NCBI GenBank assembly: GCA_048938025.1
Contig: JBHLMP010000004.1
Coordinates: forward strand, 1-64,000
Direction: 5' to 3'
DNA length: 64,000 bases
DNA from: Promethearchaeota archaeon
GTDB taxonomy: Archaea; Asgardarchaeota; Lokiarchaeia; Sigyniarchaeales; SOKP01
A program made the position numbers and the translations under genes. Numbering within the stretch: the stretch's first letter is position 1; the number at the start of each line of letters is the position of its first letter. The notes below the pieces were generated by a model. The model searched no databases, was not told the DNA's origin, and saw only the letters and a program-made list of their open reading frames with translations. Below are positions 50,558 through 57,735 of this stretch, one piece after another.

Positions 50558-53497
50558 ATGATTAAAGATCTCTCTGAGACCAAAGCTGATTTGACTTGTG
50601 AAGAATGTGGTGAACCAATAAAACATAATCAAATAGACAATAAACCTATATATTGTGAATTTTGTGGTGCTCAATATAGCTCTGTAGATTTGCGACATCC
50701 AGAAATATCACAACCGGAACAGGAAAGAATAAGATTTTCTTATACTACTGAAGAATTAAGCCAAGCAATTAGAAATCTTACCTATCAGAAAATTTATGAA
50801 TTGCTGAAAGCTAATTTTTCAATCATCAGCCGTTTAAAGGACCAAGAGGATCTTAAACAATCGCAAATATTAAAACTGGCTAAAAAATTACGAAGAGCAT
50901 TATTATTTCTTTCCCTTCCTTCCAACAATACTGAGTTGCTGACTAAGACCTCAAAGAAAAAGATTGAAAATTTTTTTGAGGACTTCCAAGCAAATTTAAA
51001 AAAAAAGAGAAAAAAGCAATCCAATTATGTGCCTTATTTGACGAAAAATATCAAATTCATTTATAGATTAATCAAGGGAGATTTTGAATTCTCAACTCTT
51101 GCTAAATATAATCAGAAAGCGGTGAATAAATTAAAAACCAAATTTGGGTTTAAAATCAATGCTAAAACTAAAAACGCATTCTCTTACTATTTATCAATAC
51201 TCCTGTGTAGAAAAATATATAAAATTATAACAACTCAGGGGCAGATCTTAGATTTAAAACATAGTAGAAATGAATTAACTAAGCAATATACATTAAACAC
51301 TGCTAAAGATATAACTGCATTAGTTTTAAACAATTACTTCAAGGGAAATTTCTCAAAAGCATATAGAAAATTAAAAATGGAGCTCGAGATCGATTGGGTT
51401 TACCGTGAAAGCTTTATTGACCATGTCCGCTCATTAATAAAACTGGTCTATAAATTAGCATATAACAACGGCTATACCTCTAGACTTGGAGGATTTCAAA
51501 AATTATTTGCTGAAGATTTAAAAGAAAGTAGGTTTTTTGAAGATGACACTATTTTTTCACCCTATTTTAAAGTGAATTTAACTCTGATTCTAAGCAGAAT
51601 TATTCACTGTATTCTTAATTCATCCCAAAATTTAACTCCACTACAATCTGACCCCAGAAAATTAAATCCTACTGATAACCTAAGATCGGCAAATGAGATT
51701 TTAGATGAACTTCTTGCAGATAAAAAAATTAAATCAGAATTTTTAAAGGAGTTTTATAACCTCTCTTTAGAAGAATTTCAAAAAGAATATGAGAATTTAC
51801 TAGCCAAATTAAAATCTGATATGCTCTATAAAGAAAACTTTCTATCATTCCTACAAAAACTTATAAATTCTGTTTACAAAATTACACACATCAAAAGTAA
51901 AAAATCGAATCATTCGAAAATAGAATTGGGAATTATCAAAGATCTGGCTAATTATAACTTTAATTGGGAGTCACTCAAAAAAGAAAAATCATGTTTCTAC
52001 TCAGAGGAAAAAGATAAAAGATATGATATATTTACAACAGAGATTCCAGAAAATAGTCTATTGTGGCGAGTAAGGGCTTATGTTATTGGATTCTTATTAT
52101 CAGATGGTTCAATAAGATATAATCCCTATGAAGTCGCAGCTTCTCAAAATTTAAAAGATAGAGACATACTAGATAATATTAAAAAAGCTTTAGGCGGAGA
52201 TATTCAAGGACCTGACAAAAAAAGTAAGTACTATTGGAGTGTATATAATAAAAGTTTAGTACTAACATTGAAGAAATATGGAATGGTCAAAGCACACTCA
52301 AAAGAACATATCGCAAAGAATCTAGTACCGCCTGATTTTATAACATTGATGATTAATGGAAAGTCAATATTGAGAGACTTTATTAGAGGATTTTATGATG
52401 GGGATGGTTGGATAACTGGTTCTTTTATAAGAGGTGATACTGGTTTCAAAATATTGGGTCCAGAAAAATTTTTAACAATAATACAAGAAATGATTTCAAT
52501 AGATGTTCCAGATATAAAATCATATATTACACCAGAAAGAAAACAATATTTTTTTATTAACAATAAGAAGTACCTTCTTTTTACTAAATCAAAAATATAT
52601 AAGAAAGGATACGGTTTTTATAAGCTCTCAACTGAAGAAAAAAAGAAAGGAGAAATAAAGATTTTGGATCATCCTTGGTTAAAGATTCTTCACTTCTCGG
52701 GAAACTTAAATGCTACTAAATTCTTTAACTGGTTATATGAGGATAATGACAAATTTGATCAATATGAGATTAATGGTATAAAAATTTGTGGTACAAGGAA
52801 GTTTAGAAAGGCTATTTCTATATTAGGAGATAAAAAGAAAAGAAAAGAAAGATTAGCTCCTGATTGGAAAGATACTATGACAGAAATTATACCCAAATTA
52901 AAAGCACGATTTTATAAAATAACAGAATTAAGAGATTTAACAAATGATTTACTTCTTGAAGAATTAAGGTCCTTAGGATTAGAACATCTATATGATGGAC
53001 AAAAAGCTAAAAATATGGATAAATTTCGAGAAAGATTAAAGTTTTTTGAATATCTAGATAATTTATTAGGACATTATAAAAAATCAAACATAAATTATTA
53101 TTTCAGTAAAATAAATCCTCCATCGATAATCCCTAAAGATTTTAAGAGAAGTATCTATTTGATTAAAAACGGAGATATTCGTAAAAACATTAAAAGCTTC
53201 ATAATTTATGTCCTTCTTTTGAAAGATAATCCCATGAAATTTGATGAAATTCTAAAAGAACTCAAGAAATCAAAAATTTTCGATAAGAACACTCTATATA
53301 TCAAGAATATTATAATAAATATCGTTGAATTAATATCATTTGAAATTATTTTTATCGAAGAACTTAAAAAACCAAGATTTATATTTAAGAATTTTAAAGA
53401 TCAAGATTTATATTTAAATATTTCAAGATTAAAAGTAATTTTAGGAATAGATTTAAAAGAGATTAAATTAAAACTAAAAAAACTATATTATAAATGA
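50558..53497 (+). CDS. Zinc ribbon + helical repeats + double-motif LAGLIDADG endonuclease-like protein
   Basis: CEECG/CEFCG; AYVIGFLLSDGSI and DFIRGFYDGDGWI motifs; C-terminal wHTH-like region. Confidence 0.78.
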   Translation: MIKDLSETKADLTCEECGEPIKHNQIDNKPIYCEFCGAQYSSVDLRHPEISQPEQERIRFSYTTEELSQAIRNLTYQKIYELLKANFSIISRLKDQEDLKQSQILKLAKKLRRALLFLSLPSNNTELLTKTSKKKIENFFEDFQANLKKKRKKQSNYVPYLTKNIKFIYRLIKGDFEFSTLAKYNQKAVNKLKTKFGFKINAKTKNAFSYYLSILLCRKIYKIITTQGQILDLKHSRNELTKQYTLNTAKDITALVLNNYFKGNFSKAYRKLKMELEIDWVYRESFIDHVRSLIKLVYKLAYNNGYTSRLGGFQKLFAEDLKESRFFEDDTIFSPYFKVNLTLILSRIIHCILNSSQNLTPLQSDPRKLNPTDNLRSANEILDELLADKKIKSEFLKEFYNLSLEEFQKEYENLLAKLKSDMLYKENFLSFLQKLINSVYKITHIKSKKSNHSKIELGIIKDLANYNFNWESLKKEKSCFYSEEKDKRYDIFTTEIPENSLLWRVRAYVIGFLLSDGSIRYNPYEVAASQNLKDRDILDNIKKALGGDIQGPDKKSKYYWSVYNKSLVLTLKKYGMVKAHSKEHIAKNLVPPDFITLMINGKSILRDFIRGFYDGDGWITGSFIRGDTGFKILGPEKFLTIIQEMISIDVPDIKSYITPERKQYFFINNKKYLLFTKSKIYKKGYGFYKLSTEEKKKGEIKILDHPWLKILHFSGNLNATKFFNWLYEDNDKFDQYEINGIKICGTRKFRKAISILGDKKKRKERLAPDWKDTMTEIIPKLKARFYKITELRDLTNDLLLEELRSLGLEHLYDGQKAKNMDKFRERLKFFEYLDNLLGHYKKSNINYYFSKINPPSIIPKDFKRSIYLIKNGDIRKNIKSFIIYVLLLKDNPMKFDEILKELKKSKIFDKNTLYIKNIIINIVELISFEIIFIEELKKPRFIFKNFKDQDLYLNISRLKVILGIDLKEIKLKLKKLYYK

Positions 53498-53535
53498 TAA
53501 TTTGAAAAAAAAAAGTGTAAAAAATTAATTAAATA

Positions 53536-55548
53536 TTAACCAATTTCAATATCCATCTTTTTACGTTCTTCAAGTAGCTTTTCAACAACAGAAGGATCTG
53601 CTAACGTTGTAACGTTTCCGATTTCTGTTCCAGAAGCTATAGCTTTTAAGATTCTCCGCATTATCTTGCCACTTCGCGTCTTAGGTAAATCATCGGCAAA
53701 TTGAATCACATCTGGCTGAAATACAGGACCGATCTCCTGTCTTACATGCATTCTTATCTCTTTCGATAACTTAGCTGATTTTTCGACTCCTTGGATTAAG
53801 GTTATAAATGCCCAAATTGCTTGTCCTTTGATTTTATGCGGAAATGGAGCTACAGCTGCTTCAGCAACCTTTGGATGGCTTACAAGAGCAGATTCTACTT
53901 CCATAGTTCCAATTCGATGACCTGAGACTTTAATGACATCATCTAATCGCCCAAGAATCCAATAATAACCATCTTCATCTCGTCGTGCTCCATCACCAGT
54001 ATAATAGTATCCTGGATACTTTTCAAGATATGTTGATTTAAATCTCTCTGTATCTCCCCAAACGTCTCTTAACATTCCTGGCCAAGGTTGTGCCATGGCA
54101 AAATACCCACCTTCATTTGGTTCTGTAATTTCGTCCCCTTCTAAATCGAAAATGACTGGTTTAATCCCTAAAAAGGGAAAACAACATGATCCTGGTTTTG
54201 TGGGTGTTGCTGTAGCAATTGGTGTCATTATAAAACCCCCTGTCTCTGTTAACCAATGTACGCGTTATGCGTCCATTTTTTGCCAGTAAGTATCAACTAT
54301 TGGGGCTTTACCTTTTCCAACGACTTTATGGTACCAGGTCCAAGCTTCGGGATTTATTGGCTCTCCAACAGTTCCTAATACTTTTAATGAACTTAAATCA
54401 TGCTTCTTAACTGGTTCATCACCATATCTCATCAAGGCGCGAATTGCTGTGGGAGCTGTATAGAAATGAGTTACTTTATTATGTTCTACAATATCCCAGA
54501 ATCTATCTACATCAGGATATGTTGGAACTCCCTCAAACATTAATGTAGTTGCACCATTAGCTAAAGGTCCATATACAATATAGGAGTGACCGGTAATCCA
54601 GCCGATATCTGCAGTACAGTACCAAATATCACTTTCATGGTAATTAAATACGATTTTATGTGTAAGCGACGTATATAATATATAACCTGCTGTTGTATGT
54701 TTAACACCTTTTGGTTTTCCAGTTGTTCCACTTGTATATAATATAAATAAAGTATCCTCAGAATCCATTGCTTCAGGTTCGCATTCATCGCTCATCCCTT
54801 CAATAAAATCATGATACCAAATGTCTTTATTAGTGTGGGGAACTTCTCTTCCGGAACGTTTTACTACTATGACATGCTCTATTGTTGGAACATCATCAAT
54901 AATTTGAACAACATCTGATATTTTTGGATAAAATTTCCCTGCTCTTAATGTTTCATCGCTTGTGAATAAGAGTCGTGAGTCAGAATCATCGATTCGATCC
55001 TTTACAGCTTCTTTTGAGAAACCACCAAAAACTATAGAATGAATAACTCCAAGGCGAGCACAAGCAAGCATTATTATTGCTAATTCAGGAACCATAGGTA
55101 ACCAAATGGTTACACGATCTCCCTTTTTCAAACCAAGTTTTTTCATACCATTGGCAACTTTATTGACTTCTTTTAATAATTCAGTGTAAGTATAAGTTTT
55201 AACATGTCCAGGTTCATCAGCTTCCCAAATAAGAGCCACTGTATCGCCTTTTCCAGCTTTTATGTGCCTATCTAAACTGTTATAAGCAACATTTAGTTTT
55301 CCTCCGACAAACCATTTACCAGGAAACAATTCTGTTTTTTCCCATACTTTTTTATAAGGCTCGAACCAGTCCAGAGATTTAGCTTGTTCATCCCAGAAAC
55401 CTTCCATATCTTCGATTGATTGTTTGTAAAGTTTTTTATATTCTTCTAAAGATATACCTGTTTTAGCAAATTTCTTGTTTAACTTAACAGGATCGAAAAT
55501 ACGTGTTTCAGTAAGAATACTTTCCATCTTTTTGTCTTTTTCAGACAT
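53536..55548 (-). CDS. acs: Acetyl-CoA synthetase (AMP-forming), interrupted by a 30-nt in-frame insert with a stop codon
   Basis: ORFs 54265..55548 and 53536..54228 are in the same frame; YTSGTTGKPKG, GEPIN, DTYWQ|TETGG, GRLDD, PKTRSGK; 660 aa after removing the insert. Confidence 0.93.
54249..54278 (-). other. Candidate 30-nt bulge-helix-bulge intron in acs
   Basis: Minus strand: CU-GGCA-AA|A-AAUGGACGC-AUAAC-GCGUACAUU-GGUU-AA|C-AG; removal gives TAC TGG CAA ACA GAG ACA (YWQTET). Confidence 0.6.
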
Positions 55549-55824
55549 ACCATTTCACTTCTTTGAATTTTATTATATTTGAATTATTTTATGTTATAAT
55601 TTTTGTTAATACATTAAAAATTTTAAAGATTCATATTCAGTCTCATCGTATTTAAAATTATCATTTTAATAAGACGAGAATAAGTCAAAAAATAGATATA
55701 TTAAATCATTTTTAAACATTTTATTTATAATTTCAAAAAAATTATATGGATAAAAGAGTATATAATAAAACTATTCAATATAATTTTAATAAAATAAAAT
55801 CTATTTTTAGCGTGAGTATTAAAA

Positions 55825-57735
55825 ATGAAAAAGTTAGATTTTCCAGACAATGATTGGAGAAAGAAATGGATAGAGAAAGAGATCACAGCAGAAGAAGCAG
55901 TTAGAAAAATTATCCCAGGGAATAGAGTATTCATAGATTCAGGGTGTGCAGAACCACAGTTATTAACTACAGAATTAATTAAACATTCAGAAACGTTGAT
56001 CGATACTGAAATTCTCCATTTTTTAACAATAGGTCCTGAAAAATATTTCAAAGATAAAGCTGAAGATCTTTTCCGGCATAATGCATTTTTTATTGGAAAA
56101 ACTCTTCGTGAGGAAATAAATAAAGGACAAGCAGATTATACTCCGATTTATGCTAGTGAAATTCCATCTTTATTTGTGACAGGAAGAAAACATATTGATG
56201 TAGCTCTTATACAGATTACACCACCAGATCCTTATGGTTTTTGTTCTTTTGGAATTAATGTTGATATAGCAAAACCAATAGCAAAATCATCTTATATAAC
56301 AATTGCAGAAATTAATCCCCAAATGCCAAGAACGTTAGGCAACAGCTTTATTCATATGAAAGAAATTGATTATTATGTTTATAATGATGTTCCATTATTA
56401 GAATTTCATTTTGATGAACCGGATGAAATTGCTAAAAGAATAGGACAGAATCTAGCAAATTTAATCGAAAATAAATCAACAATTCATGTTGGTTTTGGTG
56501 ATTTGCCAAATGCTGCTTTAAAATTTTTAGGTGAAAAAAAAGATTTAGGAATGCATTCGCATTATATTACAGACAATATAATACCTCTTATTGAAGAAGG
56601 TGTTTTAACATGTAGGAAAAAGAATTTTCACCCAGAAAAAATTTTAACCAGCTATGCTTTAGGGACTAAGAAATTATATGATTTTGTTAACAATAATCCC
56701 TATCTTGAGTTTTATCCCTCTGATTATGTTTGTAATCCTAGATTTATTGGAATGAATAAAAAATTGGTGTCAATAAATTCTGCTCGCCAAATTGATCTAA
56801 CTGGACAAGTAAATGCTTCTACAGAAGGATATCGATTTTATTCTGGACTTGGTGAAACTATTGATTTTATGAGAGGAGCCGCTTTTTCTAAAGGGGGTAA
56901 ACCGGTTATAATTATACCATCAACATCTAGAGATGGCAAAAAATCAAGAATAGTATCTCATTTAGATGAAGGGGCAGGGATAATGTTATCTCGAGGAGAT
57001 GTGCATTATGTAGTAACCGAATGGGGTGTTGCTTATCTCCATGGCAAATCAATTAGAGAAAGAGTACTTGAATTGATTTGTATTGCCCATCCACAATTCC
57101 GTCAATCACTATTAGACGAGGCTAAAAAACTAAATTATGTATATTCTGACCAAGTACTTCCATGTGATGATAATGGGAATATTTGTCTTTATCCCTTTCA
57201 ATATGTAACTATTTATGAAACACACGATAAACAAAAGATTAGAATACGTCCTGTTAAAACTACTGATGAACCATTATTAAGAGATTTGTATTACTCATTG
57301 AGTGAGAGGGATAGATATTTAAGGTTTTTTGAGTTGAAAAAAGAATTTACTCATTCTAAAACTCAATTTGAAGTAAATATTGATTATAACAATGTTTTTT
57401 CCATTGGAGCATTTACAGGAGAAATTGGAAATGAAAAGATGATAGGAAATGCTACTTATTATTTAAATCCTAAATTAAATATGGGAGAGTATAGTTTCCT
57501 TGTGAGAGATGATTATAGAGGCAAAGGAATTGGTGGATTTCTCTATCAACAAATAATCATTATCGCAAAAGAAAGAGGATTAAAAGGACTTTATGGAAAT
57601 ATTCATATTCAAAATAAAAGTGCTGTCAGAATAATTAGAACAGGTGGATATACTAGAATTACTCCTCCAGGAAATCTTGATGGAAAAGAACTGTTCTATG
57701 AAGTCTTTTTTGATAAAGAGGATTCAACAAATTGA
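55825..57735 (+). CDS. Acetyl-CoA hydrolase/transferase fused to a C-terminal GNAT acetyltransferase
   Basis: SGCAEP, SINSARQIDLTGQV, SGLGETIDFMRGA, VVTEWG, IAHPQFR; GNAT IRPVK...YLRFF...YRGKGIG. Confidence 0.88.
   Translation: MKKLDFPDNDWRKKWIEKEITAEEAVRKIIPGNRVFIDSGCAEPQLLTTELIKHSETLIDTEILHFLTIGPEKYFKDKAEDLFRHNAFFIGKTLREEINKGQADYTPIYASEIPSLFVTGRKHIDVALIQITPPDPYGFCSFGINVDIAKPIAKSSYITIAEINPQMPRTLGNSFIHMKEIDYYVYNDVPLLEFHFDEPDEIAKRIGQNLANLIENKSTIHVGFGDLPNAALKFLGEKKDLGMHSHYITDNIIPLIEEGVLTCRKKNFHPEKILTSYALGTKKLYDFVNNNPYLEFYPSDYVCNPRFIGMNKKLVSINSARQIDLTGQVNASTEGYRFYSGLGETIDFMRGAAFSKGGKPVIIIPSTSRDGKKSRIVSHLDEGAGIMLSRGDVHYVVTEWGVAYLHGKSIRERVLELICIAHPQFRQSLLDEAKKLNYVYSDQVLPCDDNGNICLYPFQYVTIYETHDKQKIRIRPVKTTDEPLLRDLYYSLSERDRYLRFFELKKEFTHSKTQFEVNIDYNNVFSIGAFTGEIGNEKMIGNATYYLNPKLNMGEYSFLVRDDYRGKGIGGFLYQQIIIIAKERGLKGLYGNIHIQNKSAVRIIRTGGYTRITPPGNLDGKELFYEVFFDKEDSTN

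Follow-up and report, generated by a model that had tools for sequence, protein, structure and literature searches.

A probable 30-nt bulge-helix-bulge intron in the acetate-CoA ligase pre-mRNA of an Asgard archaeon, and similar candidate mini-introns in other protein genes of its relatives

Introduction

How can a gene whose two halves look intact carry a stop codon in the middle of its active-site motif? The acetate-CoA ligase gene (acs) of a Promethearchaeota archaeon raises this question. It lies within the first 64,000 nt of contig JBHLMP010000004.1, a stretch called the window below; window coordinates are used throughout, acs is on the minus strand, the source genome is designated G000 and its sister genome G043. 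Read from 55548 to 53536, the gene proceeds as ...DTYWQ, then KMDA*RVHWL (asterisk, stop) and then TETGGF. The surplus, 54249-54278 (-), amounts to 30 nt or exactly 10 codons, and its in-frame TAA (54267-54265) would cut Acs short at 427 residues.

An earlier note, made from the sequence of this stretch, had proposed that the insert constitutes an mRNA intron of the bulge-helix-bulge (BHB) type. Comparison with related genomes supports this proposal through same-site inserts in seven genomes, covarying stems, one insert (in L133) that fixes the splicing register, selection on the gene, further insert sites and the presence of genes for EndA and RtcB. Overall, the probability that 54249-54278 (-) is a 30-nt BHB intron of the acs pre-mRNA, and one of a family of 28-33-nt mini-introns, is put at roughly 0.85, with removal taking place at the RNA level, as we infer, by EndA and RtcB. 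In the transcript, the exon sequence GGCA would pair with the intron sequence GGUU, and this helix would adjoin a 3-nt bulge on either side, an intron hairpin of nine positions and a short stem between the exons; a two-subunit splicing endonuclease, composed of the catalytic EndA and its non-catalytic paralogue, would cut after the second base of each bulge; and RtcB would ligate the exons, leaving the stop-bearing 30 nt behind and the YWQ-TETGG active-site motif continuous.

Results

Layout of the interrupted gene

Because the N-terminal half of the gene matches positions 3-416 of NCBIfam NF001208 (acetate-CoA ligase, 649 positions) and the C-terminal half positions 417-647, the break lies between adjacent profile positions. 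This bears out, on the minus strand, the note's claim that a 30-nt insert splits YWQ from TETGG in an otherwise intact gene. The layout that it had given base by base (exon stem CU/AG, central helix GGCA/GGUU, bulges AAA and AAC, a 9-position stem with one mismatch and a 5-nt loop) is present as described (Table 1). In particular, the central helix of the source genome consists of two G-U pairs, one C-G pair and an A.G mismatch, which together with the two bulges gives the motif in its relaxed form (3/4 pairs); of the flanking helices, at least one of which should have two or more pairs in a BHB, the intron hairpin h' has 8/9 and the exon stem h has 2 bp. Cuts after the second base of each bulge excise 54278-54249, exactly 30 nt, and restore the reading frame.

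Table 1. Parts of the interrupted acs gene (window coordinates) and all insert sites found within acs genes (caret, predicted cut).
Feature	Coordinates (strand)	Sequence or size	Remarks
acs exon 1	54279..55548 (-)	ATG at 55548; ends ...TAC TGG CAA A	N-terminal 423 residues plus first base of Thr codon; NF001208 621 bits
Candidate mini-intron	54249..54278 (-)	1 nt, 9-position stem, 5-nt loop, 9-position stem, 4-nt H3, 2 nt	
H5, exon half of central 4-position helix	54281..54284 (-)	GGCA	partner is H3
H3, intron half of central helix	54251..54254 (-)	GGUU	
5' bulge	54278..54280 (-)	AA^A	predicted cut 54279/54278
3' bulge	54248..54250 (-)	AA^C	predicted cut 54249/54248
Intron hairpin h'	54255..54277 (-)	AAUGGACGC (54277-54269), loop AUAAC (54268-54264), GCGUACAUU (54263-54255)	8/9 paired
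Exon stem h	54286-54285 with 54247-54246 (-)	CU with AG	2 bp, then mismatch
acs exon 2	53536..54248 (-)	CA GAG ACA GGG... to stop 53536-53538	C-terminal part of enzyme; NF001208 334 bits
acs site A		32 nt	3 genomes
acs site B		60 nt	1 genome (L148)
acs site C		33 nt	1 genome
acs site D		30 nt	1 genome
acs site E		30 nt	4 genomes
acs site F (focal)		30 nt	7 genomes
acs site G		32 nt	1 genome

Inserts at the same site in related genomes

In a first comparison, all 29 orthologues (20 from the same genus and nine from the same order) read YWQTETG without an insert; the closest intron-less one, from G012, has flanks identical to those of the source genome, and 42 other rows among the genus's 54 genomes cross the site without a stop. 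Taken alone, this comparison would suit a fresh lesion. A pattern search allowing at most three mismatches found a copy in G043, and a scan of one genome per species found five others; exactly 30 surplus nt after YWQ are thus present in seven genomes (G000; G043, as which locus L146 is counted; L133; L141; L142; L148; and L149). The G043 insert, from the sister of G000 in the acetoacetate-CoA ligase tree, differs from that of the source genome at one loop position, where TAA has become TAG. The insert of L149 has no in-frame stop.

The seven inserts align without gaps. On this alignment (A1), the BHB structure pairs 81.7% of 126 cells, compared to 30.2-48.4% when the partners are slid by 1-3 columns; its covariation score is 0.317 versus at most 0.146 when slid, and one of 500 shuffles reaches the observed values. 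Four stem pairs (nine cells), all within h' and making up 4 of its 9 pairs, are altered on both sides across the seven genomes and are compensatory, so that the same-site inserts with covarying stems for which the note had proposed a search in related acs genes do exist. The proportion of paired cells is 87.3% in h' and 82.1% in the central helix. Moreover, the exon half of the central helix (H5, GGCA) is invariant in all seven carriers, while its intron half varies (GGUU, GGCU, UGCU, AGCU, UGUC) and yet keeps its pairing: position by position, the pairs are GU in six genomes and GC in one; GC in four and GU in three; CG in all seven; and AU in two, with five unpaired. The note's caveat that the central helix is weak holds for the source genome, whereas at the same site in L141 and L149 the helix is 4/4 paired.

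The predicted cut positions can be judged from L133. The 5' bulge AA^A is identical in all seven carriers, and L133 has the 3' bulge AU^C; here a naive cut would yield Ser, whereas the BHB cut would yield the universally conserved Thr of YWQTETG, and it is the only register to do so.

In a FastTree tree of 45 acs proteins, read for its topology with branch support left aside, carriers of the focal insert are spread from the base to the tips, each beside a non-carrier. The divergence of the inserts tracks that of their hosts: of the 30 positions, one is changed between G000 and G043 and four between L141 and L142 (by hand count), and more distant pairs share little past the stem base. This distribution agrees with an ancient intron that has repeatedly been lost with precision, and it would also allow an alternative history of recurrent gain at the one site.

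Selection on the interrupted genes

With the insert columns taken out, every carrier acs has a length divisible by three and zero internal stops. Carrier pairs have dN/dS ratios of 0.03-0.07, compared to a median of 0.044 for 53 non-carrier pairs. For G000 and G043, the whole gene gives dN = 0.024, dS = 0.457 and dN/dS = 0.052; the 224 codons downstream of the stop, with 18 amino-acid differences, give dN = 0.043, dS = 0.685 and dN/dS = 0.062. Both flanks of the stop-bearing insert are under strong purifying selection. Because these ratios are low, the downstream codons included, it is unlikely that acs has been dead since the common ancestor of G000 and G043, and the relaxed selection that the note had named as a sign of pseudogenisation is not seen in the whole gene or past the stop.

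Further insert sites within acs

The acs gene of G043 carries four more inserts that are absent from the source genome, and across all carriers seven sites are interrupted (Table 1). As controls, 4800 pseudo-introns were placed into intron-less orthologues with the same sliding of +/-4 allowed. The BHB scores of sites A, C, D, E, F and G lie within the top 0-1.7% of these controls. At each of the five G043 sites (A, C, D, E and F), the best BHB register is the one that restores the orthologue peptide; the central helix is 4/4 paired at two of these sites and 3/4 paired at three, and the inserts at C, D and E contain no in-frame stop. At site E, four genomes have four unrelated stems, each paired at 9/9 positions.

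The insert at site B of L148 (alignment columns 1083-1142) has no in-frame stop and contains two inner hairpins; it may represent either a single extended intron or a fusion of two. Separately, the G043 acs gene is divided over two contig ends (C82:1-1519 and C39:23957-24630; L099 and L098) that overlap by ~55 nt. The break, which comes shortly downstream of the focal intron, is one of assembly, and the gene itself is unbroken.

Similar elements in other genes

A search with the N-terminal half of acs showed single TAA stops in a paralogue, acetoacetate-CoA ligase. Of 34 copies examined, eight, from seven genomes, have a 30-nt TAA-bearing insert between APSWM and MWNW. When laid out by hand, this insert has the same partition as in acs (1 + 9 + 5 + 9 + 4 + 2), its stems show compensations from G-C to A-U and from A-U through G-U to G-C, and in one genome an altered H3 yields a 4/4 central helix. 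The carriers are scattered across the gene tree with mutual dS values of at least 0.86, and their dN/dS is 0.04-0.10 in both halves, compared to a median of 0.053 for 270 non-carrier pairs.

Further, a 47-kb synteny comparison of G000 and G043 showed a 30-nt stop-bearing insert in aEF-2, a gene with stops in 16 of 53 genus rows. Fifteen of these 16 were fetched: 13 genomes have an insert at QMTDSD/DEEQER and three have one at AH/IDHGK, within the P-loop motif, with one genome having both. All inserts in the fetched rows have a 4/4 central helix and compensating stems. The bacterial-type LeuRS of G043 (L219, G043:C49:4300-8300) changes frame three times (1 to 2 to 3 to 1), with ~28-34 surplus nt per frame change, and has one more, in-frame, stop-bearing insert; the one at AHDQ/RDFEF, the only one laid out (by hand), is 28 nt long with a 4/4 central helix (GACC/GGUU) and an 8/8 stem.

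These elements share one design: an A or U, a stem of 8-10 bp, a 5-nt A/U-rich loop, the return stem, four exon-pairing nucleotides and a terminal AA or AU. Their lengths are 28-33 nt, with one member of 60 nt. The terminal AA or AU is found in 40 of the 43 insert copies tallied (the LeuRS insert left out), and the first base is A or U save in two copies at the second aEF-2 site; the loop is usually 5 nt long, A/U-rich and often C-final. Without exception, the four bases that precede the terminal AA or AU complement four exon bases located two positions upstream of the insertion point, and this exon half often falls on single-codon residues (Trp, Met). Overall, the comparison indicates that several protein-coding genes of this Promethearchaeia genus and of related lineages, essential ones among them, are interrupted by a family of such elements.

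A 30-nt element is also found in a tRNA-Val gene of the source genome (anticodon aac by ARAGORN, C82:9312-9433), with the 1 + 9 + 5 + 9 + 4 + 2 layout, a 4/4 central helix (CAAC/GUUG) and the loop UUAAC. ARAGORN intron calls are unreliable for non-canonical introns, and this element was the only noteworthy one. It suggests that the tRNA and mRNA introns here may be the same kind of element.

Similar split genes, for which the note had proposed a genome-wide scan, occur among relatives (acetoacetate-CoA ligase, aEF-2 and LeuRS); in the source genome the acs intron is the only case that can be named. Scans combining structure and open reading frames in G000 alone went from 433298 to 1138 to 858 candidates, 20 of them with an internal stop; they recovered acs, and no new case was callable because the AT-rich genome yields too many chance hairpins. 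Paralogue-based blastp of 812 read-through junctions in G000 led to no further insert, its finds being TGA sites of selenoproteins and artefacts of antisense frames. A motif for an ..AAG-N5-CTT.. subfamily had eight matches in G000, none within long open frames. In five genomes, 0 of 54 PF00133 rows had stops, in a screen that is blind to frame-shifting inserts, the LeuRS of G043 having been spotted by its broken frames.

On contigs C15, C26, C29, C85 and C87 of the source genome, an in-frame TGA aligns with a Cys of the paralogue in several paralogous genes, within the contexts ...PTDDC(S/A/G)I*(I/V)L(G/A)P... and ...FLCxK*GYG...G*...C. Such positions resemble selenocysteine sites of HdrA-like and MvhD-like proteins (family names by eye).

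Splicing machinery

The source genome encodes both enzymes that the removal of a BHB intron calls for. Two EndA open reading frames are present, of 201 aa (contig C66) and 200 aa (contig C33); within the profile of the duplicated enzyme, one corresponds to the C-terminal repeat, which is the catalytic one, and the other to the N-terminal, non-catalytic repeat. By eye, the histidine that we take to be that of the catalytic triad is kept only in the C-terminal-repeat protein. RtcB is encoded as well (E = 4.5e-170). Two EndA paralogues are given for 44 of 60 Asgard genomes in the covered passages of 10.64898/2026.10.13.758758.

The insert in DNA and database searches

The note had held that DNA reads lacking the insert would speak against an intron. 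An independently built contig of DNA run X1 (662 nt, depth 43.5) spans 54080-54741 with zero differences, the insert included. DNA runs X4 and X5 contain relatives or fragments only, and one X4 contig, with a loose end at 54281, is from a relative that lacks the insert.

Within G000, there is no second copy of the insert at three or fewer mismatches, and no 13-mer of it recurs; an exact 23-mer scan of metagenome contigs gave 0 matches. Across 53500-55600, no Rfam family matched at E up to 1. A group I or group II self-splicing intron was rejected, there being no Rfam match and 30 nt being far too small.

Neighbouring genes

Divergent from acs, at 55825-57735 (+), lies a 636-aa open reading frame whose N-terminal part resembles acetyl-CoA hydrolases/transferases and whose C-terminal end resembles GNAT acetyltransferases (by eye); a role as a Pat-like regulator of Acs would suit it. 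Downstream of acs, at 50558-53497 (+), a 979-aa open reading frame has LAGLIDADG-like segments (by eye); in G043, a 30-nt indel that is not hairpin-like lies in this frame near 50704.

Discussion

Weighing the intron against its alternatives

Several observations weigh against a BHB intron. The minimum-free-energy fold of the 71-nt sequence around the insert is a different structure with 2x2 internal loops (-11.6 kcal/mol, z = -1.42), and 16 of 200 shuffles fold as well, which makes its stability not significant; because this fold differs from the BHB, the single sequence proves little. The motif of the source genome is relaxed in its central helix (3/4, with two G-U pairs and A.G) and in its 2-bp exon stem, and a broad substrate range of its EndA is assumed from the enzyme's two-subunit make-up. 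The 60-nt insert at site B scores no better than controls. RNA run X19 covers 54689-54938, short of the predicted splice junction. By itself, then, the motif fit is weak: the element of the source genome has a BHB score in the top 1.7% of the 4800 control pseudo-introns and, taken alone, is barely beyond chance. The case is instead built on the long hairpin, covariation and selection, and on the comparative data chance is untenable as the source of the BHB layout.

A recent disabling insertion would be one alternative, the 30 nt being a repair or excision scar that is never removed and acs a pseudogene. The truncation at 427 residues, the insert-free site in the 29 first orthologues and 42 genus rows and the insignificant stability of the fold would all agree with such damage, but a dead gene is very hard to reconcile with the presence of the insert, one change apart, in the sister genome and, at an identical site, in five genomes that are less closely related, with dN/dS values of 0.052 overall and 0.062 past the stop at dS of 0.46-0.69, or with the lack of any other frame break in the carriers once their inserts are removed. 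G000 moreover lacks a second orthologue of acs, its next best match being at 32% identity. Still less probable, and to be regarded as next to negligible, is an artefact of assembly or sequencing such as a chimeric hairpin from library preparation. A palindromic insert seen at first in only one metagenome-assembled genome (MAG) would raise that suspicion; the independent contig at depth 43.5 agrees with the sequence, however, and diverged versions occupy the same site in seven genomes.

Two further explanations accept that the gene is functional. Translational bypassing or recoding, in which the ribosome hops over or reads through the 30 nt with the hairpin as a bypass signal, has a slender chance, slightly better than that of a disabling insertion. 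Its appeal is that in the source genome the Trp codon UGG is followed, 30 nt downstream, by another UGG with a stop-bearing hairpin between them, resembling the layout of phage T4 gene 60. The UGG..UGG pair, however, is found in only four of the seven carriers, the second UGG being absent from L141, L148 and L149; a hop between the two would replace the invariant Gln, and the stop is not adjacent to the take-off codon. Further, some inserts have no stop (the focal insert of L149; C, D and E of G043), others are 28, 32 or 33 nt long, and every insert has the 4-base exon pairing and two 3-nt bulges, which bypassing does not need. The pseudogene, bypass and artefact readings were accordingly rejected, on selection, on the pattern of codons, stops and lengths, and on the independent contig together with the seven genomes, respectively. 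Somewhat less improbable, while still unlikely, is removal at the RNA level by another nuclease and ligase, or by a dedicated hairpin-recognising factor, in place of EndA and RtcB. The conserved geometry is exactly that of an EndA substrate, with 3-nt bulges flanking a 4-position helix and cleavage following the second base of each bulge; the host encodes RtcB and both subunits of EndA, and a tRNA-Val of the same genome has a 30-nt element of the same layout. Speaking for another factor are a size that hardly varies and is mostly 30 nt, loops that resemble one another (AUAAC, AAUUC, AUAUC, AUUUC) and an AA at the end, which are tighter than the requirements generally associated with EndA. A BHB intron removed by EndA and RtcB therefore remains the preferred reading.

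A possible mobile family

More tentatively, and with the odds rather against it, these elements, rather than being scattered relics, may make up a mobile and proliferating family by which BHB mini-introns of ~30 nt colonise the protein-coding genes of Promethearchaeia. A single species, G043, has five inserts in acs and another in aEF-2, and its LeuRS gene is broken at least three times. Elements in four different genes have a common ..UAAG-loop-CUUA.. apex, which hints at spread between sites. Insertion guided by base pairing, for example by a reversed EndA/RtcB reaction on mRNA followed by copying back into DNA, would fit the complementarity between each insert and its exon, and precise losses would follow this route as well.

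Implications

What would be new is the scale: one machinery appears to serve mini-introns in both central metabolism (acs, acetoacetate-CoA ligase) and translation (aEF-2, including its P-loop, and LeuRS), and the presence or absence of these mini-introns differs between sister species. If they are spliced, gene callers would mis-annotate such genes as split genes or pseudogenes, metabolic reconstructions from Asgard MAGs would lose intact genes, and the expression of essential genes would depend on EndA and RtcB. Splicing would further open the gain and loss of protein-gene introns to study in the prokaryotes most closely related to eukaryotes; if the family is also mobile, spliceosome-free gain and loss of introns in protein genes would be taking place in these same organisms.

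Comparison with known systems

Short mRNA introns that are removed by an endonuclease and joined by a tRNA-type ligase have a parallel in HAC1/XBP1. The 26-nt intron of XBP1 mRNA is excised independently of the spliceosome, through an endonuclease with defined cutting positions in loops, and in animals RtcB joins the exons. HAC1/XBP1 differs from acs in its nuclease (IRE1), in the use of paired stem-loops instead of a BHB and in serving as a regulated stress switch. Phage T4 gene 60 is similar in having a stop-containing hairpin of tens of nucleotides within an intact gene, and it yields a full-length protein by bypassing; this process uses matched take-off and landing codons with a stop beside the take-off codon, an arrangement not found in acs.

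A search of the full-text literature, with subscription journals and supplements outside its range, turned up no account of BHB introns in protein genes of Asgard archaea. The nearest precedent is the crenarchaeal cbf5 of Desulfurococcales and Sulfolobales, which the covered passages of PMC2738675 give as the only gene with confirmed pre-mRNA splicing. Like the cbf5 intron of those passages, the acs element would be a BHB-type intron in a protein gene, presumably cut by a heteromeric endonuclease, with a patchy distribution, lineage-specific loss and relaxed border motifs. Unlike cbf5, which in the same passages is one gene with one intron, at least four genes are interrupted here, with up to five inserts per gene (acs of G043), in an Asgard lineage; moreover, these elements have a near-fixed length of 28-33 nt and one shared design. 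The splicing of cbf5 is demonstrated experimentally in that source, while that of acs is predicted from comparative sequence data.

The BHB introns of archaeal and Asgard tRNAs are the closest structural match. As described in the covered passages of PMC11291895 and 10.64898/2026.10.13.758758, they have two 3-nt bulges, a 4-bp helix and flanking helices and depend on the same enzymes. Asgard tRNA introns, according to the same passages, have been gained many times at non-canonical positions, and most Asgard genomes have two EndA paralogues, as does the source genome. Both sources concern tRNA introns, and their covered passages, supplements excepted, report no protein-gene introns. The difference in the present case lies in the host RNA, which here would be an mRNA.

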